This document shows positions 180-42,066 of a DNA stretch of 64,000 nucleotides, in pieces. Every line of letters begins with the position of its first letter. Position 1 is the stretch's first letter. The position numbers and the translations under genes were made by a program. The notes beneath the pieces are model-generated. The model was not told the origin of the DNA and searched no databases. It saw only the letters and a list, made by a program, of their open reading frames with translations. Source of the DNA: an uncultured Chroococcidiopsis sp. (GTDB taxonomy: Bacteria > Cyanobacteriota > Cyanobacteriia > Cyanobacteriales > Chroococcidiopsidaceae); assembly GCA_964248365.1 (NCBI GenBank), contig CAXTYC010000023.1:17386-81385 (forward strand), in the 5' to 3' direction.

Positions 180-1118
180 ATGACTTCACCTTTAGTCAGT
201 ATTATCATCACCAACTACAACTACGGATGCTACTTAGGCAAGGCTATAGATAGCGCGTTAAACCAAACTTATCCTCATACAGAGGTCATAGTAGTAGATG
301 ATGGCTCCACCGATAACTCTAAGGAAATCATCGCTAGCTACGGAAAGCAGGTTATCTCAGTGTTCAAGCAGAATGGTGGGCAAGCTTCAGCCTTCAATCA
401 GGGTTTTGCAGTAAGCAAAGGAGATATTATTTGCTTTCTTGACTCTGATGATATATTCACACCCATAAAAATGGAAGAAGTTGTGAAAACGTTTAAAGAA
501 TGCCAAGATATTGGTTGGTGTTTTCATCATCTTTGTTTAGTAAATATAAGTGAGGCTTTTGCTAAATATAACGATGGATTAAAAAATGAAAAAGTAAATA
601 TATTATCTAGAGAAAACATTGATTTTAGAGTGAAAATTAAAAAAGCAAAGTTACCTAACTTTGTTCCTGCAACTTCTGGGCTTTGCTTCTCACGATCGCT
701 CTTAAATCAGATTCTTCCAATGCCTGAAGCTGAAGGTGTATCAATTAGCGACCTTTACATGAAATATATAGCATTAGCTTTAAGTAAAGGCTGTGTTATA
801 AATGGTAATTTAGCAATTCAAGGTATACACAGTAATAATGCATATACTTGTAAATCCACAATAGAAAAACAAAAAATATATGCAAAAATAGACATCCTAA
901 CAGCCTACTGGATACGAGTTAAATTCCCAGAACTTGCTAAGACTACTAATAAGTTATTAGCAAGAGGAATTGGAAGTTATTTTCAAAGTGGAAGTATTGA
1001 ATTACAATATAAAAAAACTATCAATAATTATTTATTTACTGTCTCTTTAGCTGAGAGGACAAATATAATTATAAAAGCTTTTTACTACTATTTAAAGTTT
1101 TGGGTACGCTTAGCCTAG
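180..1118 (+). CDS. Glycosyltransferase family 2
   Basis: VSIIITNYNY, VVDDGSTD, NGGQASAFN, FLDSDD motifs. Confidence 0.92.
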   Translation: MTSPLVSIIITNYNYGCYLGKAIDSALNQTYPHTEVIVVDDGSTDNSKEIIASYGKQVISVFKQNGGQASAFNQGFAVSKGDIICFLDSDDIFTPIKMEEVVKTFKECQDIGWCFHHLCLVNISEAFAKYNDGLKNEKVNILSRENIDFRVKIKKAKLPNFVPATSGLCFSRSLLNQILPMPEAEGVSISDLYMKYIALALSKGCVINGNLAIQGIHSNNAYTCKSTIEKQKIYAKIDILTAYWIRVKFPELAKTTNKLLARGIGSYFQSGSIELQYKKTINNYLFTVSLAERTNIIIKAFYYYLKFWVRLA

Positions 1119-1202: not shown

Positions 1203-2357
1203 ATGCCAAATTGTTTTACATTTAAGCCTAATGTAGTCTTCTTTAGTGGTCTCCTCCTGCCTCCATCTGAGACATTCATCCGCGCTCAAGGGGAAGGGTT
1301 GCAGCAATTCACTCCCTATTATGTAGGTTCGCGTATAGTAAAGGGTTTATCCTTGCCTTCTGAGCGTACCTTGGTCGTCAATCGAGGTGGATTTTTAGGT
1401 GCTGCACAGGAAGGTTTATTCAAGCTATTAGGATCTGCCCCAAGGTTGTACAAGCAAGTACAGCAGTTAAACCCTGTTTTAATACACGCGCACTTTGGGC
1501 TAAATGGATCTCTAGCCCTCCCTTTGGCACGAATCCTGAAGCTCCCTATGGTGGTGACGTTTCACGGCTCTGATGCTACAAAAAAGGATGAGTATGTACC
1601 CTGGTCTTCCATCAGTCATCAGATATACTTTCGCCGCCGAGAAGCTCTCAAGCGCGAGGCTAGGCTGTTTATTGCCGTATCGGAGTTTATCAAGACAAAG
1701 TTGGTTGAGCAGGGCTTCCCACCAGACAAAATTGTAGTACATCACATCGGCGTAGACACAGAAGTTTTCCAACCCGATCGGGCTGTGCAGCGTGAGCCAG
1801 TTGTGCTGTTTGTTGGGCGGCTAGCTGAGAAGAAAGGCTGCCAATACTTGATTCAGGCTATGGCTCAGGTACAGGCAGAAATACCTGATGTGGAGCTAGT
1901 GATCATTGGCGATGGACCACTCAGGCTGCAATTAGAAGATTTAGCAGCCTCATCACTAAAACGCTACCAATTTTTGGGACTACAACCACCGCAGGTAGTC
2001 AAGAGTTGGATGAATCGATCGCTAATGCTTGCTGCTCCAAGTGTCACGGCTTCAACGGGAGATTCTGAGGGTTTGCCTACTGTTGTAGTTGAAGCGCAAG
2101 CGATGGGTTTACCTGTTGTAGGTTCTGTTCATGCTGGTATCCCCCAAGCGGTAGTGCATGGAGAAACAGGTTTCTTGGCGGCTGAGCGGGATTGGACAAG
2201 TTTAGCAGAACATATTTTGCGACTACTTAAAGACCCGATACTTTGGCAAAGTTTTAGCTGCAATGGGCAGCAGCGAGTAAGGAATTTATTCGACTTGCAT
2301 AAGCAAAATCAAGCTTTAGAAGGTATTTATGAAGCTGTTTTGCGCCAAGAAGTTTGA
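1203..2357 (+). CDS. Glycosyltransferase family 4
   Basis: ETFI, HAHFG, FVGRLAEKKG, EGLPTVVVEAQA. Confidence 0.92.
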   Translation: MPNCFTFKPNVVFFSGLLLPPSETFIRAQGEGLQQFTPYYVGSRIVKGLSLPSERTLVVNRGGFLGAAQEGLFKLLGSAPRLYKQVQQLNPVLIHAHFGLNGSLALPLARILKLPMVVTFHGSDATKKDEYVPWSSISHQIYFRRREALKREARLFIAVSEFIKTKLVEQGFPPDKIVVHHIGVDTEVFQPDRAVQREPVVLFVGRLAEKKGCQYLIQAMAQVQAEIPDVELVIIGDGPLRLQLEDLAASSLKRYQFLGLQPPQVVKSWMNRSLMLAAPSVTASTGDSEGLPTVVVEAQAMGLPVVGSVHAGIPQAVVHGETGFLAAERDWTSLAEHILRLLKDPILWQSFSCNGQQRVRNLFDLHKQNQALEGIYEAVLRQEV

Positions 2358-2419
2358 AGGCAAAAGTAACGTTACGTCTTTTTTTTGATTTTTAGATGAA
2401 TATTTCTAGGAGGTAAGAG

Positions 2420-5400
2420 GTGCAGAAATCTCAAGAGCAACAGCAAGCGATCGCAACCACTTTCATACAGGAACCACTTGCAGCATCTAGCGTTACAGAT
2501 CAGCAGATGGTGCAAGCGGCTATACTTGCCGATCCTTCAATTGATGAGTGTGTTGTACTAAATCGAGCAAAGGAACCCACTAGAGAGCTTGTTGCTTACG
2601 TAGTCTCTAGGGGAAAGTTCTCTCCAGAGCAGATCCAATCTCACTTGCAAGCTAGTCTGCCTTCAGATCTTTTAGCGATCGCCTATGTACCTGTGTCTAA
2701 ACTGCCCCTTACTCCTACAGGACAAGTGGATGAGCAAGCTTTGATTGCTCTAGAGGTGGTCGATTCTGACTTGGTGCAAAGATGGGAAACTCAACTGCAA
2801 TCCCTGCCAGAAATTGAGCAAGCAGCCCTCGTAGTTCAAGAGTATATAGAAACTTCTCCCCCGCTACATCTGTCAGATTTGCTGCCCGATTGGAAGTCCA
2901 CCCCAAGCACTAGTACTGCAACCACAATTACAACTGCAAGCTCTTTTGATGCTATTGAAGAAGCAACCGAATCCAAGGCACTAGCCATCAGCTACGGCGG
3001 ATCTCTGCCTGAAGAACCTAATGCTCCCACCACTCTACCAGAAGTTCTGCAAAGAGCAGCTCGTCAAATTCAGGGAGATAGCATTGTCTACCTCCAGCCA
3101 GACGGCACAGAAATCTTTCAATCTTATGGGGATTTAGTGGAGGAGGCAGAGCGAATTCTAGCTGGACTGAGAAAGCTAGGGTTGAAACCTCAAGACAAAG
3201 TAATTTTACAACTGGAACTCAACCAAGACATTATCCCAGCGTTCTGGGGTTGTATTTTAGGAGGCTTTATTCCCGTAATTATGGGAGTAGCACCGACTTA
3301 CAGTTCATCCAATAATGCAGTAGACAAGCTGTGTAATGTTTGGCAGTTATTAGATCAGCCTTTAATATTAACCACCCAAGCACTCCAAAAATCAGTACAA
3401 TCTCTAACTCAATGGCTACCCGCTGAAGATTTTCAAGTAAGCTCAATTGAAGCATTAAGAAAAAACACTGCTGATAAATCATATCACCCTTGTAAACCAA
3501 ATGATCCGGCATTTTTCAACCTGACTTCTGGCAGTACCGGAATGCCAAAATGTATCAGTCTGACTCACTGGAATCTAATATCTCGCGCTATAGGAACTAA
3601 TATCCTCTCTCACCACGACTGTGAAGATGTAATTCTAAATTGGCTGCCTTTCGATCATATTGGTAGTATTTCAGACTGGCATATTCGCTGTGTTTACTTA
3701 GGCTGTAAACTTATTTATACAAATAAAGAATATATTCTTGGTCACCCATTAAACTGGTTAGATTTAATTGATAAATACCGCATTACTCATAGCTGGGCAT
3801 CTAACTTTGCCTATGCCTTGATTTATGATGCCCTCAAACAAGAACCTGAACACAAATGGGATCTATCCTGCGTCAAATCCTTACTCACCGCTGGAGAAGC
3901 TGTTTCTTCCACTGCTGTGAAGGATTTTATTGAAAGTCTTGCTGTTCATGGTTTCAAAAAAACAGCCATTCGTCCAGCTTTTGGCATGGCAGAGATGGGA
4001 TCTGGTATTACTTACTATCAGCCAACAGAAGAAAATCCTCTACTTTTTCATACTGTTGACAAATCTTCTTTAAAAGGCTCCATTAAAAGAGTAAGTGCAG
4101 AGCATCCAAATTGCACAACTTTTACAGATTTAGGTCCAGTGATTCCTGGGGTATCGATTCGGATTGTAGACAAGGAAAACTCACTGTTATCTGAGGATAC
4201 AATTGGTTGTCTACAAGTAAAGGGCGATGCTGTATTTGCTGGCTACTACAAAAACCCAGAAGTCAATAAAGAAGTATTTGTAGAGGATGGCTGGTTTAAT
4301 ACCGGAGATTTAGGATTTATTTCCGATGGTCATCTGGTTGTTACAGGTAGGGCTAAAGAAACCATTATTATTAATGGAGCCAATTATTACAACCATGAAA
4401 TTGAAGCGGTAGTAGAAGAAATTGAAAGAGTTGATGTTTCTTATACTGCTGCCTGTGCTGTGCGGGATGCTAAGGGTACTACCGATAAATTAGCAATCTT
4501 TTTCAGTGCTTGCGGTGTTGATGAAGAGCATCTAATTGAATTGCTAAAGCAAATCCGGCAAACAGTTGTTGGCAAAGTGGGGGTAAATCCTGATTACTTA
4601 ATTCCTGTTGAAAAGGAGGTTATTCCCAAAACAGCAATTGGTAAAATTCAGCGATCGCAACTAAGCAAACTTTTTGAAGCGGGTGAATTTGACCATATTC
4701 TCAAACGCTTAGATATTCTGCTCAAAAACGCTAATACACTGCCAGACTGGTTCTATCGCAAAAGCTGGCGACCGAAAGAAGTTGTATCTTTAAATATTCA
4801 ACCTCTGACGGGTCAAACTCTGGTGTTCCTTGACTCATTAGGAATGGGTGAGTTGATCGGTGCAGAACTAAGCCGTCAGTACCAGCCATGTGTCAGCGTC
4901 GAGGTGGGGTCAGATTTTGTTCAGTTGAGTAGCGATCGCTATCAAATCAATCCTCAAAACCCTGACCACTATCGGCAACTACTTGAGTCTGTTTCAGAAT
5001 GCACTTTACAAATTGGTCAAATTCTGCATTTATGGAATTATGACAATTATGCTGGCGAAATTTCAAGTCCAGAGGAACTAGAGCAGGCGCAGGAAAGAGG
5101 AATCTACAGTTTGCTGTTCTTGGTGCAGGCGCTGGCTAAAGTTCAGAGTTCTGAGCATCCAGTTCGCTTGTTAGTTGCAGCTAGTCACACCCAGCCTACC
5201 TCGGCATCTGACAAAGTTGCGGCTCAAAAAGCGCCGATGTTGGGTTTGATTAAAGCAGTGTCTCAGGAATTATCTTGGCTGGACTGTCGCCATGTGGATT
5301 TATCTCTAGACACGGTAGAAATCAATGCTGAGCAAATACTGCGAGAGTTACGAGTTTTGCAGCGATCGCCAGAAGTAGCTTACCGCCAAAATCAGCGTTT

Positions 5401-7666
5401 GGTTCCCTGCTTGGAGAAAGTTGACTGGAGTCAGGAGCCAGAGCAACAACTGCCTTTTAAGCAAGGTGGAATGTATCTGCTGAGCGGTGGTTTAGGTGGT
5501 ATTGGTGTTGAGATTGCTAAGTATCTGTTGCAAAATTACAATGCTCGGTTACTGTTGGTAGGTAGAACTGCGTTACCAGAAAGAAACACATGGGATGCGG
5601 CTTTAAAGGAAAAAAATGCTGTGCGAGAGCGGATCGAGGCTTACCTATCTCTAGAACAACTGGGAGGAGAGATTGCATATCAGGCTGTTGATATTTGCGA
5701 TCGCATTCAATTGCAACAGGTAGTTGATCGAGCTAAGTCGCTTTGGCAATGTGAACTAGATGGAGTAATTCATCTAGCAGGAACCGCACCAGAACGCTTG
5801 TTAGTTGACGAAACTCGTGACAGTTTGGCAACAACCCTGCGTCCCAAGGTTTTGGGTACTTGGGCGTTGCATCAATTGATTAAAGACCAGCCAAACAGCG
5901 TTTTTATCAGCTTCTGTTCGTTGGCGAGTTTCTTTGGCGGCGCGATGATTGGTGCTTATGCTGCTGCTAATAGTTTTCTAGACTGCTTTACCCACTATCA
6001 GCGATATCATCGTTCATTGCAGAGCTATTGCTTTGCTTGGGGGATGTGGGAAGCGATCGGTATGAGCCGGAATTCTCAAGCAAAGGATTTACTTCGTGCC
6101 AAAGGTTATCAAGCTGTGACGCTAAAGCAGGGGATGCATTCACTGCTGATAGGTTTGCACCACGATCAAGGGCAACTACTGGTAGGTTTGGATGGCAGTA
6201 ACCGCAATATCCGACGGTATATAGAACCGCAGTTGTGTCGCCGTGTTCAGACACTATCTGCTTATTTCACTGCTAACACCGATTTATTGCTCTCAGGTAG
6301 GTTAGAAGCATTGTTAGTGAGCGATCGCTTCGGCACACCAAGTAAATGCACCTTTCGGCAGATCCAGCAAATGCCGCTAACAGATACAGGTGAAATCGAC
6401 CGCACACAGCTAGCCGCAATTGGTCGTGCGGGAGCTGCCGATCAGGTGAAGCCGACAACAGAACTAGAATGCCAACTAGCTAGCATCTGGCAGCAGGTAT
6501 TGGGGGTTTCCCAAGTAGGCATCCATGACAACTTCTTTGAGTTAGGTGGGAGTTCACTACAAGCCGCGCGTTTATTTGCTGAAATTGAAAAAACCTTTGG
6601 CAAAAATCTGCCCTTGGCTACCCTCTTTGAAGCTCCAACAGTCGCGCAGCTTGTCACTCTTATCAGCACACAAGAAGAGTCAGTATTGTGGTCTTCGCTG
6701 GTTCCGATTCAAACTGGGGGTTCTAAGCCACCTTTGTTTTGTATTCATGGAGCTGGTGGCAACATTCTCATGTACCGCCAACTAATACCTTACTTAGATT
6801 CAGAGCAACCAATTTATGGAATACAGCCAAAGGGACTAGATGGACATGAGACACCCCTTAACCGGATTTCAGAAATGGCGAGTGTTTATGTCAATGAAAT
6901 GCGTGACTTGCAACCTGAAGGACCCTACTACTTGGCTGGTTTATCTGCTGGTGGCTTAATTGCCTTTGAGATGGCACAAGTCCTTCAAGCTCAGGGTCAA
7001 CAAGTGGCAATGCTTGCCTTAATCGATCCTCACGCTCCTGGTTATCCCAGATTATTGCCTGTAGTACCTCGATTATTATCATTGCTACCTTATGCAGCTT
7101 ACCATTTAGCCAAAAGAAGCCCATCTCGTATAGCTAAGCTGTTCCAATCTAGACTATCGCAAGCTCGTTCACAATCACAGCAAGCAGTCAGTCAAAGCTA
7201 TGCAACAAGTGAAAATCTTCAACAGAACGAGGGATTAGAGGTATCGATCAATAGCAATAGAAACTTACCTCGAAAAATTAATTCTTTGCGCGATCGATTG
7301 GAATATTTCAGCCTCTGGCTTTTGAAATTTACTCCCTGGGCATTTCTTGTGCCGAGGTTTTACTTAGAGGAGGCGAATTCTTTACCTAACTCTCTTCAGA
7401 AGATTCAAAAAGCCAATGTTGAGGCAATGCTTTCTTACAATGCCCAAGCCTATCAAGGTCGGGCAATCCTGTTTCGCGCTAGCGAACAACCACCCGGATG
7501 TTACCCCGATCCCCAGTTGGGCTGGAGTAATTTAGTGGCTGGAGGACTTGAGGTTTACCAAATCCCTGGCTATCACAGTGAATCTTTGCTGTATGAAGAA
7601 CGAAGTGTTCGAGTTCTTGGCAAGCAGTTGAAGACTTGCTTAGATCGAGCGATCACAAATAAGTAG
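2420..7666 (+). CDS. Stand-alone NRPS-like module A-KR-T-TE (keto-acid-activating type)
   Basis: A: LTSGSTGMPK, WLPFDHIG, FGMAE, FNTGDLG, GRAKE, PKTAIGK. KR: SGGLGGIG, YAAAN. T: NFFELGGSSL. TE: GLSAGG. GTG start after AGGAGG. Confidence 0.88.
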   Translation: MQKSQEQQQAIATTFIQEPLAASSVTDQQMVQAAILADPSIDECVVLNRAKEPTRELVAYVVSRGKFSPEQIQSHLQASLPSDLLAIAYVPVSKLPLTPTGQVDEQALIALEVVDSDLVQRWETQLQSLPEIEQAALVVQEYIETSPPLHLSDLLPDWKSTPSTSTATTITTASSFDAIEEATESKALAISYGGSLPEEPNAPTTLPEVLQRAARQIQGDSIVYLQPDGTEIFQSYGDLVEEAERILAGLRKLGLKPQDKVILQLELNQDIIPAFWGCILGGFIPVIMGVAPTYSSSNNAVDKLCNVWQLLDQPLILTTQALQKSVQSLTQWLPAEDFQVSSIEALRKNTADKSYHPCKPNDPAFFNLTSGSTGMPKCISLTHWNLISRAIGTNILSHHDCEDVILNWLPFDHIGSISDWHIRCVYLGCKLIYTNKEYILGHPLNWLDLIDKYRITHSWASNFAYALIYDALKQEPEHKWDLSCVKSLLTAGEAVSSTAVKDFIESLAVHGFKKTAIRPAFGMAEMGSGITYYQPTEENPLLFHTVDKSSLKGSIKRVSAEHPNCTTFTDLGPVIPGVSIRIVDKENSLLSEDTIGCLQVKGDAVFAGYYKNPEVNKEVFVEDGWFNTGDLGFISDGHLVVTGRAKETIIINGANYYNHEIEAVVEEIERVDVSYTAACAVRDAKGTTDKLAIFFSACGVDEEHLIELLKQIRQTVVGKVGVNPDYLIPVEKEVIPKTAIGKIQRSQLSKLFEAGEFDHILKRLDILLKNANTLPDWFYRKSWRPKEVVSLNIQPLTGQTLVFLDSLGMGELIGAELSRQYQPCVSVEVGSDFVQLSSDRYQINPQNPDHYRQLLESVSECTLQIGQILHLWNYDNYAGEISSPEELEQAQERGIYSLLFLVQALAKVQSSEHPVRLLVAASHTQPTSASDKVAAQKAPMLGLIKAVSQELSWLDCRHVDLSLDTVEINAEQILRELRVLQRSPEVAYRQNQRLVPCLEKVDWSQEPEQQLPFKQGGMYLLSGGLGGIGVEIAKYLLQNYNARLLLVGRTALPERNTWDAALKEKNAVRERIEAYLSLEQLGGEIAYQAVDICDRIQLQQVVDRAKSLWQCELDGVIHLAGTAPERLLVDETRDSLATTLRPKVLGTWALHQLIKDQPNSVFISFCSLASFFGGAMIGAYAAANSFLDCFTHYQRYHRSLQSYCFAWGMWEAIGMSRNSQAKDLLRAKGYQAVTLKQGMHSLLIGLHHDQGQLLVGLDGSNRNIRRYIEPQLCRRVQTLSAYFTANTDLLLSGRLEALLVSDRFGTPSKCTFRQIQQMPLTDTGEIDRTQLAAIGRAGAADQVKPTTELECQLASIWQQVLGVSQVGIHDNFFELGGSSLQAARLFAEIEKTFGKNLPLATLFEAPTVAQLVTLISTQEESVLWSSLVPIQTGGSKPPLFCIHGAGGNILMYRQLIPYLDSEQPIYGIQPKGLDGHETPLNRISEMASVYVNEMRDLQPEGPYYLAGLSAGGLIAFEMAQVLQAQGQQVAMLALIDPHAPGYPRLLPVVPRLLSLLPYAAYHLAKRSPSRIAKLFQSRLSQARSQSQQAVSQSYATSENLQQNEGLEVSINSNRNLPRKINSLRDRLEYFSLWLLKFTPWAFLVPRFYLEEANSLPNSLQKIQKANVEAMLSYNAQAYQGRAILFRASEQPPGCYPDPQLGWSNLVAGGLEVYQIPGYHSESLLYEERSVRVLGKQLKTCLDRAITNK

Positions 7667-7772
7667 CACAGGTATTTAAGGGAAGCAAAGGGGAGTTAGT
7701 AAATTCTAATTCCCCTCGCTCCTCGCTCATGCCTATTTTCAAGTGAAGTCTATTTTCGGACTTAATCTAACA

Positions 7773-8882
7773 ATGCAACAAGCAAAGCTTCAACAAATTG
7801 ACCAAGACTTGATTAGGCTGCTAAGGGAAAGAATAGCAGTCTTGGCAGAATCAGGAATTCCTCCTTTAGAGCAGCAACTGTCAGACTGCTCATCCTACCT
7901 TGCTCAGACAGGCGTGCCAGAATCTCTATGGCAAAATATTGTCACAGGTTGTGTTGCTGCACTCAAGAGCGCATCCTTGTCTCACAATCAGATTGAGCCG
8001 CGCAACATTACTGCGATCGGCGGAGGCGGTATGATGGGGCGCTTCTTTACACAGCGGCTGCAAGCAGCTGGACATAATGTTAATGTTCTCGAATACAATG
8101 ACTGGGATAATGCAGAGAAATTACTATCCCAGGCAGATTTAGTATTAGTCTGCGTTCCCCTCAAAAGTACATTGGCTGTAATTCAAAAGGCAGCTAAATA
8201 CCTTCGTCCAACCACTGCACTAGTTGATATTGCCAGTATCAAAACTCCCTTCGTGCAAGCTATGCTAGAGCAGCATAAAGGACCTGTATTGGGTTTACAT
8301 CCCATGTTCGGTCCAGGGGTCAAATCCTTCTTGTCACAAAAAGTTGTAGTTTGCCCAGGTCGTGAAAATGAGGCGTTCCAATGGTTTCTAGACTTTATTA
8401 AAAATGATGGCGGCAAGCTGATTACCTGTACGCCCCAAGAACACGATCGCATGATGATAGCTATCCAAGCAATCCGGCATTTCTGTACGTTTAGTCTTGG
8501 TGTTTTCTTGGCAGAAGAAGAAATTGATATAGCCCGTAGCCTAGAGTTTGCTAGCCCGATTTATCGCCTTGAAAGTAACATAGTTAGTCGCCTGTTTGCC
8601 CAGGATGGGTCTTTATACATAGATATCATACTAGCTTCCGAGGAACGCACTGGGGCAATCGGTAGGCTGGCGCAGACTTATAACCGTTTGGCGAAATTGG
8701 TGGCACAAAAAGATCGCTCCGCCCTGATGCGCGAGTTTGTAAATGTCGGCAATGCTTTTAAACAAGAGTCGGATCGCGCTCTTGAAGAAAGTAATTATGT
8801 GATCAACGCCATCAGTACACTTTTAGCGGCAAGCGAGGTCAAAGCGAATTCAACGCCAGCAACACTTGTCAGCAACACTTAA
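7773..8882 (+). CDS. tyrA: Chorismate mutase/prephenate dehydrogenase
   Basis: CM-like N-terminus (QIDQDLIRLLRER), GGGGMMG, DIASIK, GLHPMFGP, EHDRMM. ATG at 7773 preferred over GTG at 7743. Confidence 0.88.
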   Translation: MQQAKLQQIDQDLIRLLRERIAVLAESGIPPLEQQLSDCSSYLAQTGVPESLWQNIVTGCVAALKSASLSHNQIEPRNITAIGGGGMMGRFFTQRLQAAGHNVNVLEYNDWDNAEKLLSQADLVLVCVPLKSTLAVIQKAAKYLRPTTALVDIASIKTPFVQAMLEQHKGPVLGLHPMFGPGVKSFLSQKVVVCPGRENEAFQWFLDFIKNDGGKLITCTPQEHDRMMIAIQAIRHFCTFSLGVFLAEEEIDIARSLEFASPIYRLESNIVSRLFAQDGSLYIDIILASEERTGAIGRLAQTYNRLAKLVAQKDRSALMREFVNVGNAFKQESDRALEESNYVINAISTLLAASEVKANSTPATLVSNT

Positions 8883-8904
8883 ACTTACTTGAGCTTATCT
8901 GGAA

Positions 8905-10368
8905 ATGAACCTACGACAAAAGGCTGCTAAAGGTGTAGCTTGGTCTGCGATCGAAAATTGGGGTAATCAGGCAATCTATTTTGTCCTATTTCTTGTGCTT
9001 GCCCGCCTGTTACCACCAGAAGCCTTCGGGCTGGTTTCCTTGGCTGGTATTTTGATCAGTTTTATGATGGTCTTTGCTGATCAAGGAATTAGTGATGCGC
9101 TCATACAACGCCAAGAACTGGAACCAGAACACTTAGATACTGCTTTCTGGACTAACGTTGGCGTTAGTGCTTTGCTAACTATATTTAGCATTGCTGCTGC
9201 CCAACCCGTGTCTAACTTATTCCATCAGCCGCAGTTGATGCCAATTATATGCTGGTTATCCCTAAGCTTTTTGAGTAGCGGCTTGAGTAGTGTGCAGCAG
9301 TCACTTTTGCGTCGCCAATTTGCCTTCAGAGCTTTAGCAGTGCGATCGCTCTTAGCGTTATCTGTCGGAGGTATCGTCGGTGTAAGTATGGCTTGTATGG
9401 GCTGGGGTGTCTGGAGTCTAGTTGGTCAGCAGTTGGTCGGTCGGTTAGTTACAGTTCTAGCTCTATGGTGGGTTAGTGACTGGCGACCTGGTTTTAGGAT
9501 TTCTGCCAAACATTTTAAGGAGTTGTTCTCCTTCGGGATAAAAATGCTCGCAGGTAGTATACTCGCTTTTTTTAGTATCCGCTCTGATGATTTTTTAATC
9601 GGATACTTCCTCGGTCCTGTGGCACTTGGCTACTACACAGTTGCCTACAGGCTGCTGGTAGCTATGACACAGATGATAAGTGCTACTACACGCCAAGTCG
9701 CACTACCGATATTTTCCAGGCTACAGCAACAGACCGAGCAGCTAAGGCAAGCATTTCTCAGTGCCACACAGTTCTTGAGTTTGTTTGTTTTTCCAGCCGC
9801 TTTAGGTCTAGTGGTACTAGCTCCCGAAGTGGTGCGGACTTTGTTCGGTGAGCAATGGACACCAAGCGTTCCGGTGATGCAGATTCTTGCTCTGAGTGTC
9901 ATGACACAGATAGTCGGTTCTCTGGGTGGAATTATCTTGGTAGCAGTCGGCAAGCCTGATTGGGGTTTAAAAATGATTTTGCTCAACACTGTGGTTAACG
10001 TCATCGGTTTTGCGATCGCAGTTCGATGGGGCATTGTGGCTGTGGCAGCATCATTTGTAATTCGTGATTATCTACTTCAACCTGTTTTGTTTTGCCTCGT
10101 CTATAAGCTTACAGGCATCAAGGTTTTCACTTATCTTCGCCAATTTGCCGTCCCACTTGTTGGTTCGCTAATCATGATATTTTTTATCTTGGGAGCAAAA
10201 TTCTTCCTGGGTAACTTGCTAAACTCGCAGGCATTATTAGCAACTTGTGTGACGCTTGGAGCGTCGATATACACAGCAACAATACTGTTAATTGCACCAA
10301 AAATATTCTGGCAAGTAGTTAATTTTGCTGGCTTATCATTAGGAATTTCTAAGTTGAAAAAAACTTAA
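8905..10368 (+). CDS. Wzx/MOP polysaccharide flippase
   Basis: LARLL.PEAFG, ALIQR..L...HLDTAFW, LGYY..AY; many TM helices. Confidence 0.9.
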   Translation: MNLRQKAAKGVAWSAIENWGNQAIYFVLFLVLARLLPPEAFGLVSLAGILISFMMVFADQGISDALIQRQELEPEHLDTAFWTNVGVSALLTIFSIAAAQPVSNLFHQPQLMPIICWLSLSFLSSGLSSVQQSLLRRQFAFRALAVRSLLALSVGGIVGVSMACMGWGVWSLVGQQLVGRLVTVLALWWVSDWRPGFRISAKHFKELFSFGIKMLAGSILAFFSIRSDDFLIGYFLGPVALGYYTVAYRLLVAMTQMISATTRQVALPIFSRLQQQTEQLRQAFLSATQFLSLFVFPAALGLVVLAPEVVRTLFGEQWTPSVPVMQILALSVMTQIVGSLGGIILVAVGKPDWGLKMILLNTVVNVIGFAIAVRWGIVAVAASFVIRDYLLQPVLFCLVYKLTGIKVFTYLRQFAVPLVGSLIMIFFILGAKFFLGNLLNSQALLATCVTLGASIYTATILLIAPKIFWQVVNFAGLSLGISKLKKT

Positions 10369-10515: not shown

Positions 10516-11679
10516 ATGCGTGTTTTAAGTATTCATAACCGCTATCAAATTCGAGGTGGAGAAGACGAGTCTAGGGAAGCAGAGGAAAAACTTTTACGGG
10601 AAATGGGTAACATCGTTGATGTATATGAAGAAAACAACGATCGCTTAGCAACTATCAACTCTGTAGAAATGGCTCTGAGGACAGTCTGGTCTAAAGAGGC
10701 TTATCAAACAGTAAAACAGCGTCTAAAAAAGCAGCCCCACGATATAGTTCACGTTCAAAATTTTTTTCCTCTAATTTCTCCCTCAGTTTACTACGCAGCA
10801 AAGTCCCAAGGGGTTCCTGTAGTTCAGACTTTGCGTAACTATCGTCTTTTGTGTCCTAATGGTTTGTTTTTTCGCAACGGAAGTGTCTGCGAAGATTGTC
10901 TGGGCAAGGCAGTTCCTTTGCCTGGGGTATGGCATGGCTGCTACCGAGAAAGCCGCATGGCAAGTGGAGCTGTTGCAACAATGCTGACTGTGCATCGCAC
11001 CATGCGAACTTGGATAGAGATGGTAGATGTATATATTGCCCTTACCGAGTTCGCGCGTCAGAAGTTTATTCAAAGTGGTTTTCCAGCAGAAAAAATTGTA
11101 GTTAAGCCTAACTTCGTTCACCCCGATCCAAAACCAGGAGAAGGGCGCGGAGGGTATGCCCTCTATGTGGGAAGGCTTTCAGTAGAAAAAGGATTAGATA
11201 CGCTGCTATCCGCTTGGGAGCGATTGGGAAAACAGCTACCTCTCAAAATTGTTGGGGATGGACCACTAACAGATCAGGTAGTTGAGGCTAGTAAGAAACT
11301 TGGCTGTGTAGAGTGGTTGGGACGCAAACCGATGCAGGAAGTTTATGACTTGATGGGTGAAGCTACCTTTGTGGTTTTTCCATCAAAGTGGTACGAAACC
11401 TTTGGTCGAGTGGCAGTAGAAGCTTTTGCTAAAGGTACTCCAGTGATTGCTGCTAATATTGGAGCGATCGCTGAATTAATTGAGCATCGTCGCACTGGGC
11501 TACACTTTCGTCCAGGCGATTCGGAAGATTTAGCAACGCAGGTAGAGTGGGCTTTGACGCATCCAAGAGAACTTGCCCAGATGCGCTACCAGGCTAGAAC
11601 TGAGTTTGAGGCTAAATACACCGCCCAGCAAAACTACCGCAGATTGATAGATATTTACCAATTGACCTGTGACAATTAG
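10516..11679 (+). CDS. Glycosyltransferase family 4
   Basis: HNRYQIRGGED, VGRLSVEKG, ETFGRVAVEA. Confidence 0.92.
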   Translation: MRVLSIHNRYQIRGGEDESREAEEKLLREMGNIVDVYEENNDRLATINSVEMALRTVWSKEAYQTVKQRLKKQPHDIVHVQNFFPLISPSVYYAAKSQGVPVVQTLRNYRLLCPNGLFFRNGSVCEDCLGKAVPLPGVWHGCYRESRMASGAVATMLTVHRTMRTWIEMVDVYIALTEFARQKFIQSGFPAEKIVVKPNFVHPDPKPGEGRGGYALYVGRLSVEKGLDTLLSAWERLGKQLPLKIVGDGPLTDQVVEASKKLGCVEWLGRKPMQEVYDLMGEATFVVFPSKWYETFGRVAVEAFAKGTPVIAANIGAIAELIEHRRTGLHFRPGDSEDLATQVEWALTHPRELAQMRYQARTEFEAKYTAQQNYRRLIDIYQLTCDN

Positions 11680-11703: not shown

Positions 11704-13626
11704 ATGAAAAAAATTCCTGTACTTACAATCAGTGCTGGCGCGATTTTATCTTCTTGTTTAATCGTAGCCAATATGATGCAGCAGCGAATATCGTTTCAGT
11801 CCTTGGCAAGTAATTCTGCTGTACTAGCAAATAACACAACAACCGTTCCAGCTGCGGAAGTTACAACTGACAATATTATCTTTCCAAAGGATGGGGGTGT
11901 AATTAATGTTAAAAATGCTCCATACAACGCTAAAGGAGATGGTGTTACTGACGACACGGCGGCAATTGGGCGGGCGCTGGGCGCTTACCCTAATGCAAAT
12001 AAGATTATTTATTTACCAAAAGGTACTTATCTAGTCTCGAACCAATTACAATGGCCCAATGGTAGGGGTGGACAAGAACATAAAAGAACAATCCTACAAG
12101 GTCAGAACACAGGAAAGACAATTATCAAGTTAAAAAATAGCGCCCCTGGCTTTACCAACCCATTTTTGCCTAAAGCAGTGATTTGGACTGGCAATGCTCC
12201 TGCTCAGCGGTTTCGGAATGCTATTCGTAATTTGACAGTAGATACAGGTACTGGTAATTCAGGTGCGATCGCCATCCAGTTCATTGCAAATAACCAAGGC
12301 ACAATACGTAATGTAACCATACGCTCAGGTGATGGTCAAGGTATTGTAGGACTTGATATGTCCTACACCAATGAAATCGGTCCTTTATTAGTTAAAAATC
12401 TCAAAGTCTATGGCTTTAATGTCGGCATCAAGACAGCTAACAAAGTTAATAGCCAAACCTTTGAACATATCACCTTGCAAAACCAAAAAGAATACGGTTT
12501 TGCTAACTATGGTCAAGTAATTAGCATCCGAGACTTGCAGAGTAACAATGTTGTGCCTGCAATTTATAATAAAGACGGAATTCTAACTTTAATTGATTCA
12601 AAATTAACTGCAACCAACAAAGTATCAGGGCAGCCTGCCATTAAAAACGACTCAACGCTTTTCGCCCGTAACATCAAGATATCAGGCTATCAAATCGCCA
12701 TTGGGAATAAAAGTGGTCGGCAGAATGTTGCCAGTTCGTCAGTGACGGAATTTGTATCTCATCCAATCTCTAGCGTTTTTCCCACACCATCCAAATCGTT
12801 GAATCTGCCGATAGAGGAAACACCAGATGTATCATGGGATGCCTTAAGTAATTGGGAAAGCCCAACTCATTTTGGTGCAGTTCCTAATGACAATAGAGAT
12901 GACAGTGCGGCAATTCAGGCTGCGATCGACTCTGGCAAAACAACCGTGTACTTTCCTAATGGTTCGTATATAGTTAATCATACTATTTATATCAGAAATA
13001 AAGTCAAAAGAATTATTGGACTAGAGGCTGGTATTGTTGGTAAGGGCGTTTTTCGTTTTGTAGAAGGTAGTGCGCCTGTTGTAGTTATAGAACGTCTTGA
13101 CGGAATTGGAAGTGGAATTATCCATGCCACTTCTAGAACACTAGTTCTCAGCAGTATGAGCCTGGCTCCCAGCGGTGGTAAAGCCAGCTATTCCAATATT
13201 GGAAATGGCAAACTTTTTATTGAAGATGTGGTAGGAGGACCTTGGAAATTTGAGCGGCAAAAAATTTGGGCGCGGCAGTTCAACGCTGAAAATCAAGGTA
13301 TACACATATCTAACAACGCGGGAAACTTATGGATACTAGGTCTCAAAACTGAAAGAGATGGTATTTTGGTAGATACTAAAGCAGGTGCAAAAACTGAAAT
13401 AATAGGAGGATTGATTTATTCTAATTCTGACCGGAAAACAACACCAATGTTTACAAATGAAAACTCTGCTGTTTCCCTGACTATTGGAGAATGTAATTTT
13501 AATCGAAATTTCTACTTTAATTTAGTTACTGAAACACGAAATGGTGTGATGAAACAATTAAATAGAGGTGATACACCACAGCGTTGTAATGGTAGTGCCA
13601 TTCCTTTATACGTTGGGCATAAATAA
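11704..13626 (+). CDS. Exported beta-helix polysaccharide hydrolase/lyase-like protein (pectate-lyase-3/GH55-like)
   Basis: Signal-like N-terminus; two copies of the GDG.TDDTAAI/PND..DDSAAIQ motif, each followed by (I/V)Y(L/F)P.G.Y. Confidence 0.75.
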   Translation: MKKIPVLTISAGAILSSCLIVANMMQQRISFQSLASNSAVLANNTTTVPAAEVTTDNIIFPKDGGVINVKNAPYNAKGDGVTDDTAAIGRALGAYPNANKIIYLPKGTYLVSNQLQWPNGRGGQEHKRTILQGQNTGKTIIKLKNSAPGFTNPFLPKAVIWTGNAPAQRFRNAIRNLTVDTGTGNSGAIAIQFIANNQGTIRNVTIRSGDGQGIVGLDMSYTNEIGPLLVKNLKVYGFNVGIKTANKVNSQTFEHITLQNQKEYGFANYGQVISIRDLQSNNVVPAIYNKDGILTLIDSKLTATNKVSGQPAIKNDSTLFARNIKISGYQIAIGNKSGRQNVASSSVTEFVSHPISSVFPTPSKSLNLPIEETPDVSWDALSNWESPTHFGAVPNDNRDDSAAIQAAIDSGKTTVYFPNGSYIVNHTIYIRNKVKRIIGLEAGIVGKGVFRFVEGSAPVVVIERLDGIGSGIIHATSRTLVLSSMSLAPSGGKASYSNIGNGKLFIEDVVGGPWKFERQKIWARQFNAENQGIHISNNAGNLWILGLKTERDGILVDTKAGAKTEIIGGLIYSNSDRKTTPMFTNENSAVSLTIGECNFNRNFYFNLVTETRNGVMKQLNRGDTPQRCNGSAIPLYVGHK

Positions 13627-13667: not shown

Positions 13668-14993
13668 ATGAATTTACAAGCTATATCTCAAAAAAAAAGA
13701 AAGGGATATGTCCAGCTTTCCCATTTGTTAATGTTGGCGTTTTGCTTGGCTTTTTATCCCCGCGTTCTCACTTTATTAAAAATTCCATCATTTGTTAATC
13801 TTTTACACCTGATAATTATTCCAGGTATTTGTTTATTTACAATACTTAAAACCCGAACTAGAAGTAAGAGCCAAATTGCCATTTCAAAGGCGTTAATTTT
13901 TGGCATAACTATCTTGTTTACAGTAATGGTTGCTAGCGCCCTTTTAAATAGGGCTGGATTTATCAATGTAATCGTAGATTTTTTGCTTCTGTGCGAACCG
14001 TTCATGATGTTGCTGGCATTCGTAAGCATTCCCATGTCTCCAACCAAAATTGAACAAATTCGCACTTTGCTAATTTATTCTGGCTTTATTAACACCTTGT
14101 TTGCCTTTGTTCAGCACTATATTCTCAAGCTGCACCTCCGCCCTGGGCAAGAAGATAACATCAAAGGAGTATTTATCGCACAAGGAGCAGGTCACGTTAT
14201 AGGCGCTTCGGTTGCATTGACCTTTGGTCTGTATTATTTTTTCAATGCTAAGACTGTTCCCCTGTGGCTCCGCGCATGTGTATTACTTGCTACTTTTTGG
14301 CATATAATACTTGCTGATGCCAAGCAGGTGTTGCTAGCTTTTTTGGTAGGTGGGTTACTTCTATTATTAACTAAGTTCAAGGATATTGGACAGGCAATAA
14401 AGTACCTTTCAGCTGGAAGTGTAATTGTTTTACTGTTAGTTTGGTGTCTAGAAAATGTGCCTGCTTTCTCTGCATACAAGACTTGGCTCAGACCAGAAAT
14501 CTATGGTCCTGATGGTGAAGCTACCAAACTCAAGTTGGCGACATTTTCAATCGTTCCTTCATACTATCATTCACCCCTAAATCCTTGGCTGGGTCTTGGA
14601 CCTGGTCATACCGTTGGGCGCTTAGGAGGATGGATGCTTAGAGAATATGAAGCTTTATTGACACCTTTAGGCTCTACTACCCATCCTGCTAGCAATGCTG
14701 TGTGGGCAGCAACAGCAGCAAGTTGGCTCGGAAACCAATCGAGTATGTTCTCGCCACTGTTTGGCTGGGCTGGTATCTGGGGCGATTTAGGTTTTTTAGG
14801 GCTAGGAGCATACCTGTATCTCGCGTTTTTAGTTTGGCATAAGCTTTGCTTGAATGACTTTTCCAAATTTTTACTATTGTGTGTATCTGTTTTTGGTCTG
14901 ATTTTTTCTCAAATGGAAGAACCTGGTTATATGCTATTTGTGGCAACCATAATCGGTCTTCAATGGCAAGAAAAACGATACAGAAGAACTTAA
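13668..14993 (+). CDS. Polytopic membrane protein, probable Wzy-like polymerase
   Basis: About 10 TM segments, late periplasmic loop with GLGPG, position in Wzx cluster. Confidence 0.6.
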   Translation: MNLQAISQKKRKGYVQLSHLLMLAFCLAFYPRVLTLLKIPSFVNLLHLIIIPGICLFTILKTRTRSKSQIAISKALIFGITILFTVMVASALLNRAGFINVIVDFLLLCEPFMMLLAFVSIPMSPTKIEQIRTLLIYSGFINTLFAFVQHYILKLHLRPGQEDNIKGVFIAQGAGHVIGASVALTFGLYYFFNAKTVPLWLRACVLLATFWHIILADAKQVLLAFLVGGLLLLLTKFKDIGQAIKYLSAGSVIVLLLVWCLENVPAFSAYKTWLRPEIYGPDGEATKLKLATFSIVPSYYHSPLNPWLGLGPGHTVGRLGGWMLREYEALLTPLGSTTHPASNAVWAATAASWLGNQSSMFSPLFGWAGIWGDLGFLGLGAYLYLAFLVWHKLCLNDFSKFLLLCVSVFGLIFSQMEEPGYMLFVATIIGLQWQEKRYRRT

Positions 14994-15574: not shown

Positions 15575-16918
15575 ATGAGTGTTCTTATGAATCTCAAATC
15601 CATCTATGCTCGTATTGGCATATCTGCTCGTACGCGCATTGTATTTATTAGTGTTTTATTCTTTCTTACTGGGCTAATTATTTTTACTGGGCTATCTATT
15701 TTTACTCAACCAGCTAGTGCAATTAGTTTTACAACCAACAGTGTTCGACCAGCAGATGTACTCGATTACGAGGCACTAGGTTACACATATGACACACTTT
15801 CTATCCAAGGCAGCAATAGAAATCTAAAGGTCAGAAAAAATGCTGCAAGTTTGAACTCGGGCGAAATCAGCAGGTTCGTCAATGCCGTTTTAAGCTTGAA
15901 ACGGACAATGACTTCAGGCAGTGATGGCACGCGAATTAGTATATACGATCAGTTTGTAGCAACGCATTTAGGAACCACAGACGTAGCGGGGCGTATAGGT
16001 CCAGATGGCAGACGTTTTTCAAGTCCTGCTCATGGCAATGCTGCCTTTCTACCATGGCATCGTGAATTTCTATATGAATTTGAACACCTTTTGCAGGTAG
16101 TAGATCCGTCCGTAACAATCCCCTACTGGGATTTTACAGATCGTAATACAAGAAACATTATCTTCCAGAACAATTTCATCGGACCTAATGGCGGTGCTTC
16201 TGGAGTAGGCGGTGGTGCGGTACAGTCTGGTTTTTTCTCAGCAGCTAATGGATGGCGGCAAAGAAGAGACTTGAGTAGCAACACATGGGCAGGGAGATCT
16301 ACCGATACCCAACCACTTACACGCTATATGCGTTCTCCTGATAGATTACCTACTACAACTCAGGTCAATCAAATCCTTGCCCAAACTTCCTATGATGCGT
16401 TTCGCGGTTCCCTGGAAACTACAGCACATGCTGGAGCCCACCTGTGGATGGGAGGCTCGACGGCAAATGTCTCAACTTCTCCCAACGATCCAACGTTTTG
16501 GCTGTTGCATGCGAATGTAGACCGCATCTGGGCTGAATGGCAAGTGGATGGACATTGGGGTAGCGATTGGTATACTAGGACTGGTAAACCTTTCGGACAC
16601 AACCTGAATGACATGATGTGGCCCTGGGATCAAGGTCGCATGAGTGCTGCGGCTGATTTGCAAGCCTTAATACCCAGTCTATCCTCAGTTGAAGCTAGAA
16701 CTCGCCGTTCACTACGTTCAGTTGAATTTAGGGTTGCCAGTAGTCCAGAAGAGTTAATGTCAGATCACAACCGTCATTTGTACAATCCATTTGACTCTCA
16801 GGGTGAACACGAGATGCATCACCATATGCTTTGTGAGGCAAATACATCGAGCGATATGCAATGTGACAACAACACAGACAACATTGCTGCTGCCTCATCC
16901 ATCCTTCCTCCAGCCTAA
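15575..16918 (+). CDS. Tyrosinase (type-3 copper), probably exported
   Basis: VRKN, AHGNAAFLPWHR, IPYWD, HAGAHLW, SPNDPTFWLLHANVD; hydrophobic N-terminus ending in PASA. Confidence 0.92.
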   Translation: MSVLMNLKSIYARIGISARTRIVFISVLFFLTGLIIFTGLSIFTQPASAISFTTNSVRPADVLDYEALGYTYDTLSIQGSNRNLKVRKNAASLNSGEISRFVNAVLSLKRTMTSGSDGTRISIYDQFVATHLGTTDVAGRIGPDGRRFSSPAHGNAAFLPWHREFLYEFEHLLQVVDPSVTIPYWDFTDRNTRNIIFQNNFIGPNGGASGVGGGAVQSGFFSAANGWRQRRDLSSNTWAGRSTDTQPLTRYMRSPDRLPTTTQVNQILAQTSYDAFRGSLETTAHAGAHLWMGGSTANVSTSPNDPTFWLLHANVDRIWAEWQVDGHWGSDWYTRTGKPFGHNLNDMMWPWDQGRMSAAADLQALIPSLSSVEARTRRSLRSVEFRVASSPEELMSDHNRHLYNPFDSQGEHEMHHHMLCEANTSSDMQCDNNTDNIAAASSILPPA

Positions 16919-17089: not shown

Positions 17090-17557
17090 ATGTTGAAATT
17101 AATAGGCTTGAGTGCAACTTTATTTACTAACACTTTTGTGTTTTTGTCTGGCGCTCAATTGGAGGCGATCGCACGAGAGCCTGATTACCCTTGCTACATG
17201 ATTGCTCCCTCCGGCCAAACTGTAGATTTATCTAACTCCCTGTGTAGTTTCGGACATAATATTGTTGATACTAGTGCTAATATTGACGACTTATTCTTTG
17301 CTGATTATAAGCAAGCTCTAATCAAAAAGTATCCAAACTTAAATAATGTTTTGCTGGAGCAACAACCTGAAGCGTTTGGGTATGCTCATGCTGTTTGTAA
17401 TGGTCTGAAGTCTGGGCTTTCTCCTAATGTAATTCAAAGTTTACAAAACGAGCAAATTGTTAATACCATTTCTGGAAGAAACACGATTGTTGACTTAGAA
17501 TTGATTAATTTTTTAGCTCCTAAATACTATTGCCCACAATTCAAGCAAGGTAGGTAA
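17090..17557 (+). CDS. Exported hypothetical protein (DUF732-like C-terminus)
   Basis: Signal peptide; PCYM...G..VDLS..C and YAHAVC...YYCP Cys pairs. Confidence 0.55.
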   Translation: MLKLIGLSATLFTNTFVFLSGAQLEAIAREPDYPCYMIAPSGQTVDLSNSLCSFGHNIVDTSANIDDLFFADYKQALIKKYPNLNNVLLEQQPEAFGYAHAVCNGLKSGLSPNVIQSLQNEQIVNTISGRNTIVDLELINFLAPKYYCPQFKQGR

Positions 17558-37380: not shown

Positions 37381-37383
37381 TCA

Positions 37384-37444
37384 TAGGGGCGGGTTTAACA
37401 AACAATCAATTGGGCAATAGATAACCCAAATAAACCCGCCCGTA
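37384..37444. repeat. REP-like element between mysB and mysC
   Basis: TAGGGGCGGGTTTA...TAAACCCGCCCGTA. Confidence 0.7.
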
Positions 37445-37489
37445 TCCACGTTCTAGGGGTGAGGTTGATCCACACTTTTAAGGCTATAT

Positions 37490-38854: not shown

Positions 38855-38859
38855 AAATT

Positions 38860-42058: not shown

Positions 42059-42066
42059 CTTAATAA

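Follow-up and report, generated by a model that had tools for sequence, protein, structure and literature searches.

Among the described nonribosomal peptide synthetase (NRPS) modules that take up alpha-keto acids, two are closest to the protein treated here. AerA has the domain order adenylation-ketoreductase-carrier (A-KR-T); its substrate is described as phenylpyruvate or hydroxyphenylpyruvate, which it activates and converts by reduction into the corresponding lactate (PMC10143770). StsA (PDB 6ULW) is a depsipeptide-type module using alpha-ketoisocaproate; as marks of such keto-acid modules, credited to Alonzo et al. 2020, PMC7923214 names Ile306 in place of Asp, the pair Gly414-Met415, and a split pseudo-A_sub. 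A further protein of this kind, referred to below as the synthetase, is encoded at positions 2420-7666 of a stretch of 64,000 nucleotides from an uncultured Chroococcidiopsis sp. (GenBank assembly GCA_964248365.1, 5.58 Mb in 102 contigs; contig CAXTYC010000023.1, G000:C23:17386-81385), which as a whole is called the window. It ends in a thioesterase (TE), possesses no condensation (C) domain, and is enclosed, together with a prephenate dehydrogenase gene (tyrA) and a flippase gene (wzx), in a polysaccharide locus of around 33 kb that also contains the gene of an exported tyrosinase. The reading favoured here, to which a probability of about 0.4 is given for the whole chain, is that 4-hydroxyphenyllactate would be made on the carrier, transferred to the polysaccharide repeat unit, flipped, and oxidised by the tyrosinase.

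In the 1748 amino acids (aa) of the synthetase, Pfam recognises AMP-binding (aa 220-610), a DIP2-like C-subdomain (646-756), the structural part of the KR (819-966), the KR proper (1017-1211), PP-binding (1352-1415), and Thioesterase (from 1437). The resulting domains are, in positions of the window:

2492-2749, plus strand: N-terminal A_sub-like domain, aa 25-110 (PF13193 at aa 31-101, 23.2 bits, below the cut-off of 24.5)
2984-4723, plus strand: adenylation domain, aa 189-768 (I414, G522, M523; McyG A-PCP, 4R0M, 530 bits)
4874-6199, plus strand: structural and catalytic ketoreductase, aa 819-1260 (PF21394 and PF08659, 137.8 bits)
6227-6424, plus strand: C-terminal part of the split pseudo-A_sub, aa ~1270-1335, with the second A10-like motif (boundaries inferred)
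6473-6664, plus strand: carrier (T) domain, attachment site Ser1379 (PF00550, 62.1 bits)
6728-7663, plus strand: type I thioesterase with a long lid, aa 1437-1748 (PF00975, 103 bits; triad Ser1509, Asp1536, His1719)

The top match of the synthetase in a search against the PDB is StsA (6ULW; E 1.9e-258, 864 bits), unbroken over residues 118-1417; the A-PCP didomain of McyG comes second, and the solved fatty acyl-AMP ligases (FAALs) reach 146-180 bits. In the HMMER alignment, Ile306, Gly414, and Met415 of StsA correspond to I414, G522, and M523 of the synthetase, and the latter two residues are invariant in 31/31 relatives as well as present in all 37 rows of a motif comparison. The alignment to StsA likewise takes in residues 118-150 as well as the segment that joins the KR to the T domain, such that the split pseudo-A_sub is present at the sequence level, with an A10-like motif before the T domain. 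An alignment of 31 family members, in which conservation was scored, contains as invariant positions the A3 loop (T369-K377), the A10 lysine (Lys742), K1143, Y1180, and N1184 of the KR, and G1376, G1377, and Ser1379 of the carrier; Ser1509, Asp1536, and His1719 of the TE are at least 90% conserved. From these sequences, the synthetase looks enzymatically active, and on every sequence feature compared the module is an alpha-keto-acid loader (A-KR-T, StsA/AerA type). With StsA, CesA, Vlm, and ClyF it shares an intact A domain and KR within a split pseudo-A_sub, a hydrophobic residue at the place of the amino-binding Asp, and the Gly-Met motif, whereas in those systems a C domain or an oligomerising line receives the product, and the keto acids used are mostly aliphatic; the ClyF-like C-A-KR-T-TE proteins (L064, L065) form a separate clade with other pocket motifs.

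The N-terminal domain (aa 25-110) carries an A10-like motif in which Gln replaces the catalytic Lys, is 32-41% identical to NRPS A_sub regions of its own genome, and also occurs in AerA-like proteins; in C-A-KR-T-TE relatives it is placed after the C domain. It precedes the split pseudo-A_sub, and the StsA chain of 6ULW begins beyond it.

Concerning the substrate, the relatives found in a phylum sample of 401 genomes are informative. A match to the synthetase at E 1e-100 or better exists in 23 of them; the full form with this TE is found solely in the window's own genome, and the best other matches are A-KR-T proteins of 1427-1437 aa, e.g., at L060 (56% identity over 1380 aa). The AerA-type loaders altogether are 53-57% identical to the synthetase over around 1380 residues. 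At L060, L061, and L067, a C-A-T-E NRPS comes after the loader, to which L061 adds a halogenase with a docking domain at this place. An FMN-dehydrogenase-like gene comes next in L061 and L067 (the L061 stretch ends at that gene), and farther along L060 and L067 encode a small protein that no family model matches, then a cupin and an SDR; L060 continues with a C-A gene. The SDR and the cupin of L067 are near-identical to PDB 6JH7 and 5ZBE, which we take to be AerF and AerE, and the next-best matches are BacG and BacB of bacilysin. Judged by gene order and these structural look-alikes, the three loci are aeruginosin-type clusters; a halogenase gene between aerA and aerB is reported in PMC2515870.

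Three pocket-like segments of the A domain, picked by an inferred mapping of the usual pocket positions, were compared among the rows of a quick IQ-TREE tree (37 rows chosen from around 130 proteins, SH-aLRT support only, midpoint root). The motif FDHIGSISDW occurs in 10/11 rows of the window's clade and in 5/5 of the AerA-like group, and in 0/14 of the clade that comprises the C-A-KR-T-TE proteins and a Nostocales-type TE-bearing group; for RPAFGMAEMGSGITY the respective counts are 9/11, 5/5, and 0/14. The group holding the AerA-like rows appears in this tree as the sister of the window's clade, which comprises 11 rows and has a support of 99. Because of the 56% identity to an AerA-type loader, the common pocket-like motifs, and this tree position, an aryl-pyruvate is very probably the substrate, and its 4-hydroxy form, 4-hydroxyphenylpyruvate, is probably the specific one.

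The synthetase thus resembles AerA in its A-KR-T order, its N-terminal A_sub-like part, and identical pocket-like motifs. There are, however, clear differences: AerA possesses no TE and passes its product to AerB, whereas the synthetase ends in a TE and has as its neighbours tyrA, wzx, glycosyltransferases, and a tyrosinase. By Pfam, neither an aer-type NRPS module nor a cupin or an SDR was found near it. Its sequence and surroundings indicate that it works like AerA, yet is not AerA.

Apart from the window's clade, there is a second clade of A-KR-T-TE proteins (P0046, P0047, P0059, P0064, P0105; hosts Brasilonema, Scytonema, Microcoleus, Plectonema, and a Nostocales strain), which has other pocket-like motifs and groups with the ClyF-like C-A-KR-T-TE proteins. 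Other relatives are fusions (P0035, P0043, P0107): one joins an aromatic ammonia-lyase domain to A-KR-T-TE, and a sulfotransferase domain is found with a TE in P0043 and with a C domain in P0107. These are regarded here as undescribed single-module variants.

The genes of the window that take part in the proposed chain, and the glycosyltransferase gene in front of them, are the following:

1203-2357, plus strand: GT4 glycosyltransferase, immediately 5' of the synthetase (PF00534, 123 bits)
2420-7666, plus strand: keto-acid synthetase A-KR-T-TE, 1748 aa, without a C domain (Pfam; PDB 6ULW)
7743-8882, plus strand: TyrA, E. coli-type prephenate dehydrogenase, 379 aa (NF008400; PDH_N and PDH_C)
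8905-10368, plus strand: Wzx-type (MOP/PST) flippase, 487 aa (PF13440, Polysacc_synt_3, 309 bits)
15575-16918, plus strand: exported tyrosinase with an N-terminal signal or anchor (PF00264, 143.6 bits)

The first four of these open reading frames (ORFs) and a further one at 180-1118 are co-oriented, and the gaps along 1203-10368 amount to 62, 76, and 22 bases. The flippase scores 252 bits against NF007773, slightly below the cut-off of 273. According to Pfam, a Condensation domain is present in none of the ORFs of the cluster. A scan for promoters and terminators gave counts equal to those in shuffled sequence.

A scan of the genome collection yielded 22 loci, eight of which (L009-L016) match the synthetase from its N-terminus on; their neighbourhoods were read with tblastn, ORF maps, and Pfam, and the following fractions refer to assessable loci. 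Directly 3' of the synthetase, tyrA is found in 6/7 loci (L009-L013, L015); wzx is next in 5/5 (L009, L010, L011, L014, L015), the remaining contigs ending earlier; and a tyrosinase domain is situated directly 5' in 5/6 (L010, L011, L013, L014, L015). The close relative L009, 81% identical, has glycosyltransferases upstream as in the window, among them an orthologue of the GT4 gene at 1203-2357 in the equivalent position (80% identity), and its contig stops before the place equivalent to that of the window's tyrosinase. Since L011 and L015 are near-duplicates, there are around five lineages besides the window, with synthetase identities of 52-58%; the taxa named for these loci are Leptolyngbyaceae, Lyngbya confervoides, Thermosynechococcaceae, and Acaryochloris. 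The gene arrangement is non-random, because it recurs in these other genomes. In L010, L011, and L015, sulfotransferases follow, along with glycosyltransferases orthologous, at 47-60% identity, to those upstream in the window, and an Acyl_transf_3 gene exists in L010 only.

The flippase itself is more widespread. Matches to Wzx at E 1e-60 or better occur in 26/401 genomes including the window's own, most of them with 40-55% identity. In four genomes with Wzx matches of 51-55%, around 35 kb around wzx were searched by tblastn with the window's proteins: these regions contain a WecG gene, Wzc-like genes, or the GT4a orthologue, and zero matches to the synthetase, TyrA, or the tyrosinase. In two genomes of the same family (G011, G302), neither the synthetase nor the tyrosinase nor a Wzx orthologue (best 26% identity) was found with these queries, and a metagenome scan with generic patterns gave 79 loci, in which tblastn detected no tyrA, wzx, or tyrosinase match at E 1e-15 or better. 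Because Wzx orthologues are situated in polysaccharide loci of genomes without the synthetase, the three-gene cassette looks like an add-on to a widespread type of polysaccharide locus. A co-adaptation of Wzx to the cassette was also considered and ruled out (48-51% identity in cassette loci versus up to 55% in cassette-free genomes).

Concerning the supply of the substrate, TyrA exceeds the cut-off of the E. coli-type model (NF008400; 312.5 bits versus 273) and comprises PDH_N and PDH_C; its N-terminus is short and chorismate-mutase-like, its first around 85 residues aligning solely within the NCBIfam model. The genome has three genes of the prephenate dehydrogenase family, i.e., a 282-aa frame on contig C8, the window copy, and a copy on contig C5, the latter two being 56% identical. 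The C5 copy belongs to a scytonemin-like cluster (L066, G000:C5:19500-39499), in which an E. coli-type tyrA is accompanied by genes for DsbA, DHQ synthase, UbiA, and TatD-like and NHL-repeat proteins. The gene set of the scytonemin cluster in PMC2726228 matches that on contig C5, and the tyrA there is read as stopping at p-hydroxyphenylpyruvate. By its kinship with the scytonemin-cluster tyrA, and by the presence of a third gene of this family in the genome, the window's tyrA is to be regarded as an additional copy dedicated to the pathway, and its kind has already been connected with the supply of 4-hydroxyphenylpyruvate. The scytonemin cluster is comparable to the window also in that the same source describes an extra E. 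coli-type tyrA and a membrane-anchored tyrosinase, tyrP, proposed to be periplasmic (PMC2726228). The window locus differs from it in lacking scy genes and in that the partner of tyrA is a keto-acid synthetase in a polysaccharide locus.

The tyrosinase of the window (15575-16918) has a hydrophobic N-terminus that ends in ASA, an export signal, and contains the type 3 copper-binding domain; its match to the MelC2 model (E 4e-42) is under the cut-off. It is 43-46% identical to the tyrosinase domains directly 5' of the synthetase in L010, L011, L013, L014, and L015. At L010:1000-9303, this domain is part of a complete protein of 2767 aa with DUF4347, seven SWM-repeat stretches, 19 FG-GAP-like repeat stretches, and the tyrosinase domain near the C-terminus, and the tyrosinase-bearing frames of L011, L013, L014, and L015 are interrupted by the contig starts. 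To the domain in the giant protein, the window's tyrosinase is 43% identical (273 bits), the second tyrosinase of the genome 36% (186 bits). The export signal together with the fusion to a giant DUF4347/SWM/FG-GAP surface protein in the relatives places the predicted oxidation of phenols outside the cell. A phenol oxidase embedded in a surface-protein scaffold is unusual in its own right.

The description given by the initial annotation of this stretch was upheld as to the observation and in part as to its interpretation. An A-KR-T-TE protein without a condensation domain, followed by tyrA and co-oriented with it between glycosyltransferases and the flippase, is confirmed by the ORFs and Pfam; its reading as a keto-acid module is borne out by the homology to StsA, by I414, G522, and M523, and by the 56% identity to AerA-type loaders; and the assignment of TyrA to 4-hydroxyphenylpyruvate gains support from the NF008400 cut-off and the paralogue in the scytonemin-like cluster. 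The term Wzx/Wzy cluster holds for Wzx (PF13440), whereas for Wzy there is only a candidate, a 441-aa protein without a Pfam match. A search for synteny of A-KR-T-TE, tyrA, and wzx, proposed there as a check, found the link kept in other lineages, with the qualification that wzx orthologues also exist without the cassette.

On this basis, the following chain can be put forward. TyrA would supply 4-hydroxyphenylpyruvate, which the A domain would load and the KR would reduce to carrier-bound 4-hydroxyphenyllactate. On the inner side of the membrane, the TE would transfer the acid to the lipid-linked repeat unit, at a hydroxyl or perhaps at an amine; Wzx would flip the decorated unit, with polymerisation as the next step, and the exported tyrosinase would oxidise the pendant phenol and thereby cross-link or pigment the polymer. 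Taken by itself, the transfer of the acid to the polysaccharide, instead of hydrolysis or oligomerisation, is a tentative choice with odds somewhat short of even. The specific picture of a sheath tanned like insect cuticle, in which an NRPS TE esterifies 4-hydroxyphenyllactate onto the repeat unit and a surface tyrosinase makes cross-linking and colouring quinones of it, is doubtful.

The triad of the TE (Ser1509, Asp1536, His1719) is intact in the alignments, and the AlphaFold model (mean pLDDT 71.7) is confident in the core and poor in the lid. With Foldseek, thioesterases of NRPSs, polyketide synthases, EntF, Pks13 (TM 0.70), fatty acid synthases, and Vlm2 are matched at similar scores. Sequence and predicted fold do not discriminate among transfer, hydrolysis, and oligomerisation as its outcome. 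In the tyrA-linked clade, the TE has lid motifs that are missing from two ClyF-like thioesterases, and one hydrophobic lid stretch; a special lid was nevertheless dropped as a candidate feature, given full-length matches in ordinary C-A-T-TE modules and the poor modelling of the lid. The Acaryochloris synthetase (L014:3736-8880) possesses a TE without the lid motifs of the clade and with Cys instead of Ser as its nucleophile.

Several observations weigh against the chain as proposed. As to the TE, the fold resembles that of thioesterases that hydrolyse, cyclise, oligomerise, or transfer, without distinction; an exhaustive search returned 3856 relatives at E 1e-30 or better, i.e., a large, ordinary family of NRPS terminal domains; full-length matches of 37-46% identity are situated at the ends of plain C-A-T-TE and multi-module NRPSs; and the nucleophile of L014 is the Cys just mentioned. 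As to the acceptor side, neither a dedicated acyltransferase conserved across the cassette loci nor an acceptor was identified, and Wzx is no closer among the cassette-bearing loci, i.e., it exhibits no sign of co-adaptation. As to the precursor, L014 carries a sulfotransferase at the place of tyrA, no chorismate mutase domain was found in TyrA (Pfam CM_2, even at E 5), and the preference of this putative enzyme for prephenate over arogenate is an assumption. L060, L061, and L067 were identified as AerA-like from their gene order and from PDB look-alikes, without records bearing such a name, and the tyrosinase could instead have protein tyrosines or a free phenol as its substrate.

The best surviving alternative, although unlikely, is that the TE hydrolyses the thioester and that free 4-hydroxyphenyllactate gets out of the cell and is polymerised by the tyrosinase to a melanin-like pigment deposited in, and unbonded to, the matrix. 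It would suit a TE of the ordinary NRPS terminal kind and an exported tyrosinase; for ClyF (C-A-KR-T-TE), hydrolytic release of the product is proposed in PMC7923214, and the location among exopolysaccharide (EPS) genes could mean co-expression only, as is discussed for the scytonemin pigment and EPS in PMC2726228. However, to spend ATP on a thioester merely to reduce a keto acid would be wasteful, a soluble dehydrogenase being sufficient; the sole conserved transporter is a Wzx-type flippase, and a small-molecule exporter never accompanies the cassette; and in every assessable lineage the cassette lies within a polysaccharide locus beside wzx. For these same reasons, and because a sugar-releasing TE is known, transfer to the repeat unit is favoured: in Pks13, polyols, with trehalose as the preferred one, take over the product from the TE (PMC9210659).

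Rather improbable is an iterative module, in which the alpha-hydroxyl resulting from ketoreduction serves as a nucleophile towards the acyl group on the TE, such that linear or cyclic oligo-esters of 4-hydroxyphenyllactate arise and a polyester is cross-linked by the tyrosinase. The closest solved thioesterases by sequence include EntF (2ROQ, 3TEJ), the Vlm2 TE is among the fold matches (both are oligomerising, ester-forming thioesterases), and the KR provides each unit with a nucleophilic hydroxyl. Yet oligomerising and hydrolysing thioesterases are not told apart by any sequence feature here, the constant adjacency of wzx is left unexplained, and literature searches turned up no such product of cyanobacteria, nor do we know of one.

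Hardly probable is a different substrate, such as phenylpyruvate or an aliphatic keto acid, or a product unrelated to polysaccharide, with tyrA, the tyrosinase gene, and wzx as neighbours by history only. The choice of substrate is deduced from sequence, AerA proteins take phenylpyruvate or hydroxyphenylpyruvate (PMC10143770), and L014 retains the synthetase, the tyrosinase, and wzx without tyrA; on the other hand, the gene order repeats in around five lineages at just 52-58% protein identity, tyrA is a third, additional copy in the genome, and a tyrosinase requires a phenol, which fits a 4-hydroxy substrate. A function of the A domain as a FAAL, by which the protein would add a hydroxy-fatty acyl anchor to the glycan, was at first suggested by the names of NCBIfam and Pfam models (in NCBIfam, FAAL or long-chain ligase models and the PvdL N-terminus match best, though none reaches its cut-off, next to the DIP2-like C-subdomain in Pfam) and was dropped as very improbable after the PDB search, in which StsA (864 bits) and McyG (530 bits) are far above the solved FAALs (146-180 bits), as are the AerA-type loaders, given also that the keto-acid residues are conserved and that a plain fatty acid offers no group for a KR to reduce when a ketosynthase is lacking.

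The proposed transfer of 4-hydroxyphenyllactate to a glycan can further be compared with systems beyond the keto-acid modules. DltABCD D-alanylates teichoic acids and AlmEFG adds glycine to lipid A, both in a carrier-protein-dependent manner. They agree with the proposed function of the locus in that an adenylating enzyme loads a small acid on a phosphopantetheinyl carrier for esterification of a surface glycoconjugate. They differ in consisting of separate proteins with a dedicated membrane transferase and in using amino acids, whereas the synthetase has everything fused, its KR makes a hydroxy acid, and its TE would be the transferase; among the Pfam matches of the cluster there is no DltB/DltD, AlmG, or MBOAT-like partner. 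Synthetases of the atromentin/terrequinone type have the order A-T-TE, lack a KR, and perform a Claisen-type dimerisation of an aryl-pyruvic acid. The likeness is that a single module activates an aryl-pyruvic acid and the TE decides on the product. Like Pks13, the synthetase is a carrier-protein enzyme that terminates in a type I TE, and the TE of Pks13 releases the product onto trehalose, not water (PMC9210659); the two are only around 20% identical, the fold match is no better than that to other thioesterases, and substrates and pathway are different.

Other expectations of the initial annotation have to be modified. That the TE would release the acid or move it to a sugar or a lipid-linked unit gained no support with respect to sugar or lipid transfer, the domain being an ordinary NRPS terminal TE. 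The idea of an ultraviolet-absorbing aromatic decoration had overlooked the conserved tyrosinase, which makes oxidative cross-linking or pigmentation the better guess. The statement that no NRPS-driven tailoring of EPS has been characterised agrees with the literature found, but Dlt and Alm are a precedent for carrier-dependent esterification of surface glycopolymers. A literature search that left aside subscription journals and bioRxiv supplements yielded no paper in which cyanobacterial EPS is connected with a synthetase of this type, with tyrA, or with a tyrosinase, nor one on the cassette itself.

The remaining genes of the polysaccharide locus in the window are:

180-1118, plus strand: GT2 glycosyltransferase (PF00535, 112.7 bits)
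10516-11679, plus strand: GT4 glycosyltransferase (PF00534, 116 bits)
11704-13626, plus strand: pectate-lyase-fold protein, possibly an epimerase or a glycanase (PF12708, 104.6 bits)
13668-14993, plus strand: candidate Wzy polymerase, 441-aa multi-span membrane protein (spans read from the sequence)
17090-17557, plus strand: 155-aa, Cys-containing, secreted-looking protein (signal-like N-terminus; weak DUF732 match only)
18065-18934, plus strand: WecG/TagA-family glycosyltransferase (PF03808, 219.5 bits)

The candidate Wzy polymerase has zero Pfam matches even at E 5, and its Atlas neighbours are cyanobacterial hypothetical proteins, with one cluster in which 12% of the members contain Wzy_C. 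For the 155-aa protein, no counterpart was found in the related loci at E 1e-10. The WecG/TagA gene is the final polysaccharide gene, after which the housekeeping genes GcpE and CtpA come next. On the same contig, 5' of the window, genes of five further glycosyltransferases and of a Wzz/P-loop protein are situated, along with a second flippase-like gene that is split. With its 767 aa (L031:6549-8852, minus strand), the Wzz/P-loop protein represents the chain-length or co-polymerase component (Wzc/PCP), its Wzz (26.7 bits) and P-loop matches being near the cut-offs. The flippase-like gene (L031:3452-4668, minus strand, contig C23) consists of adjacent ORFs of 146 and 251 aa, which both match flippase families (MurJ, Polysacc_synt), and looks like a gene broken by a frameshift or an assembly error.

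Elsewhere in the window, a mycosporine-type operon is situated at 35313-39948 (a DHQ-synthase-like gene, an O-methyltransferase, and a 454-aa protein without a Pfam match), after which a short N-terminal fragment of GH32 comes, and a type II restriction-modification pair is found at 41363-43116 (the endonuclease is of the Eco47II family, 231 bits, and its convergent partner is a C-5 cytosine methylase, 286 bits).

Cyanobacterial sheaths and exopolysaccharides bind biocrusts and mats, and to our knowledge it is not known how these sheaths harden or gain their colour. The cassette presents a concrete route, with a phenolic hydroxy acid that would be built on a carrier beside a flippase, and a phenol oxidase that is exported. 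Should the glycan carry the acid in bonded form, NRPS chemistry would reach into the tailoring of polysaccharides, Dlt and Alm would be joined by a third system that acylates the cell surface by way of a carrier protein, and parts would become available for phenol-bearing polysaccharides that can be cured by an enzyme. If the acid is freed or oligo-esterified instead, this would still be an undescribed single-module keto-acid pathway. Should the sheath indeed be tanned in the way suggested, the cassette would stand for an aromatic acylation of an exopolysaccharide driven by a carrier protein, and it would provide a genetic handle on the toughness of the sheath and on sheath pigments of unexplained biosynthesis.

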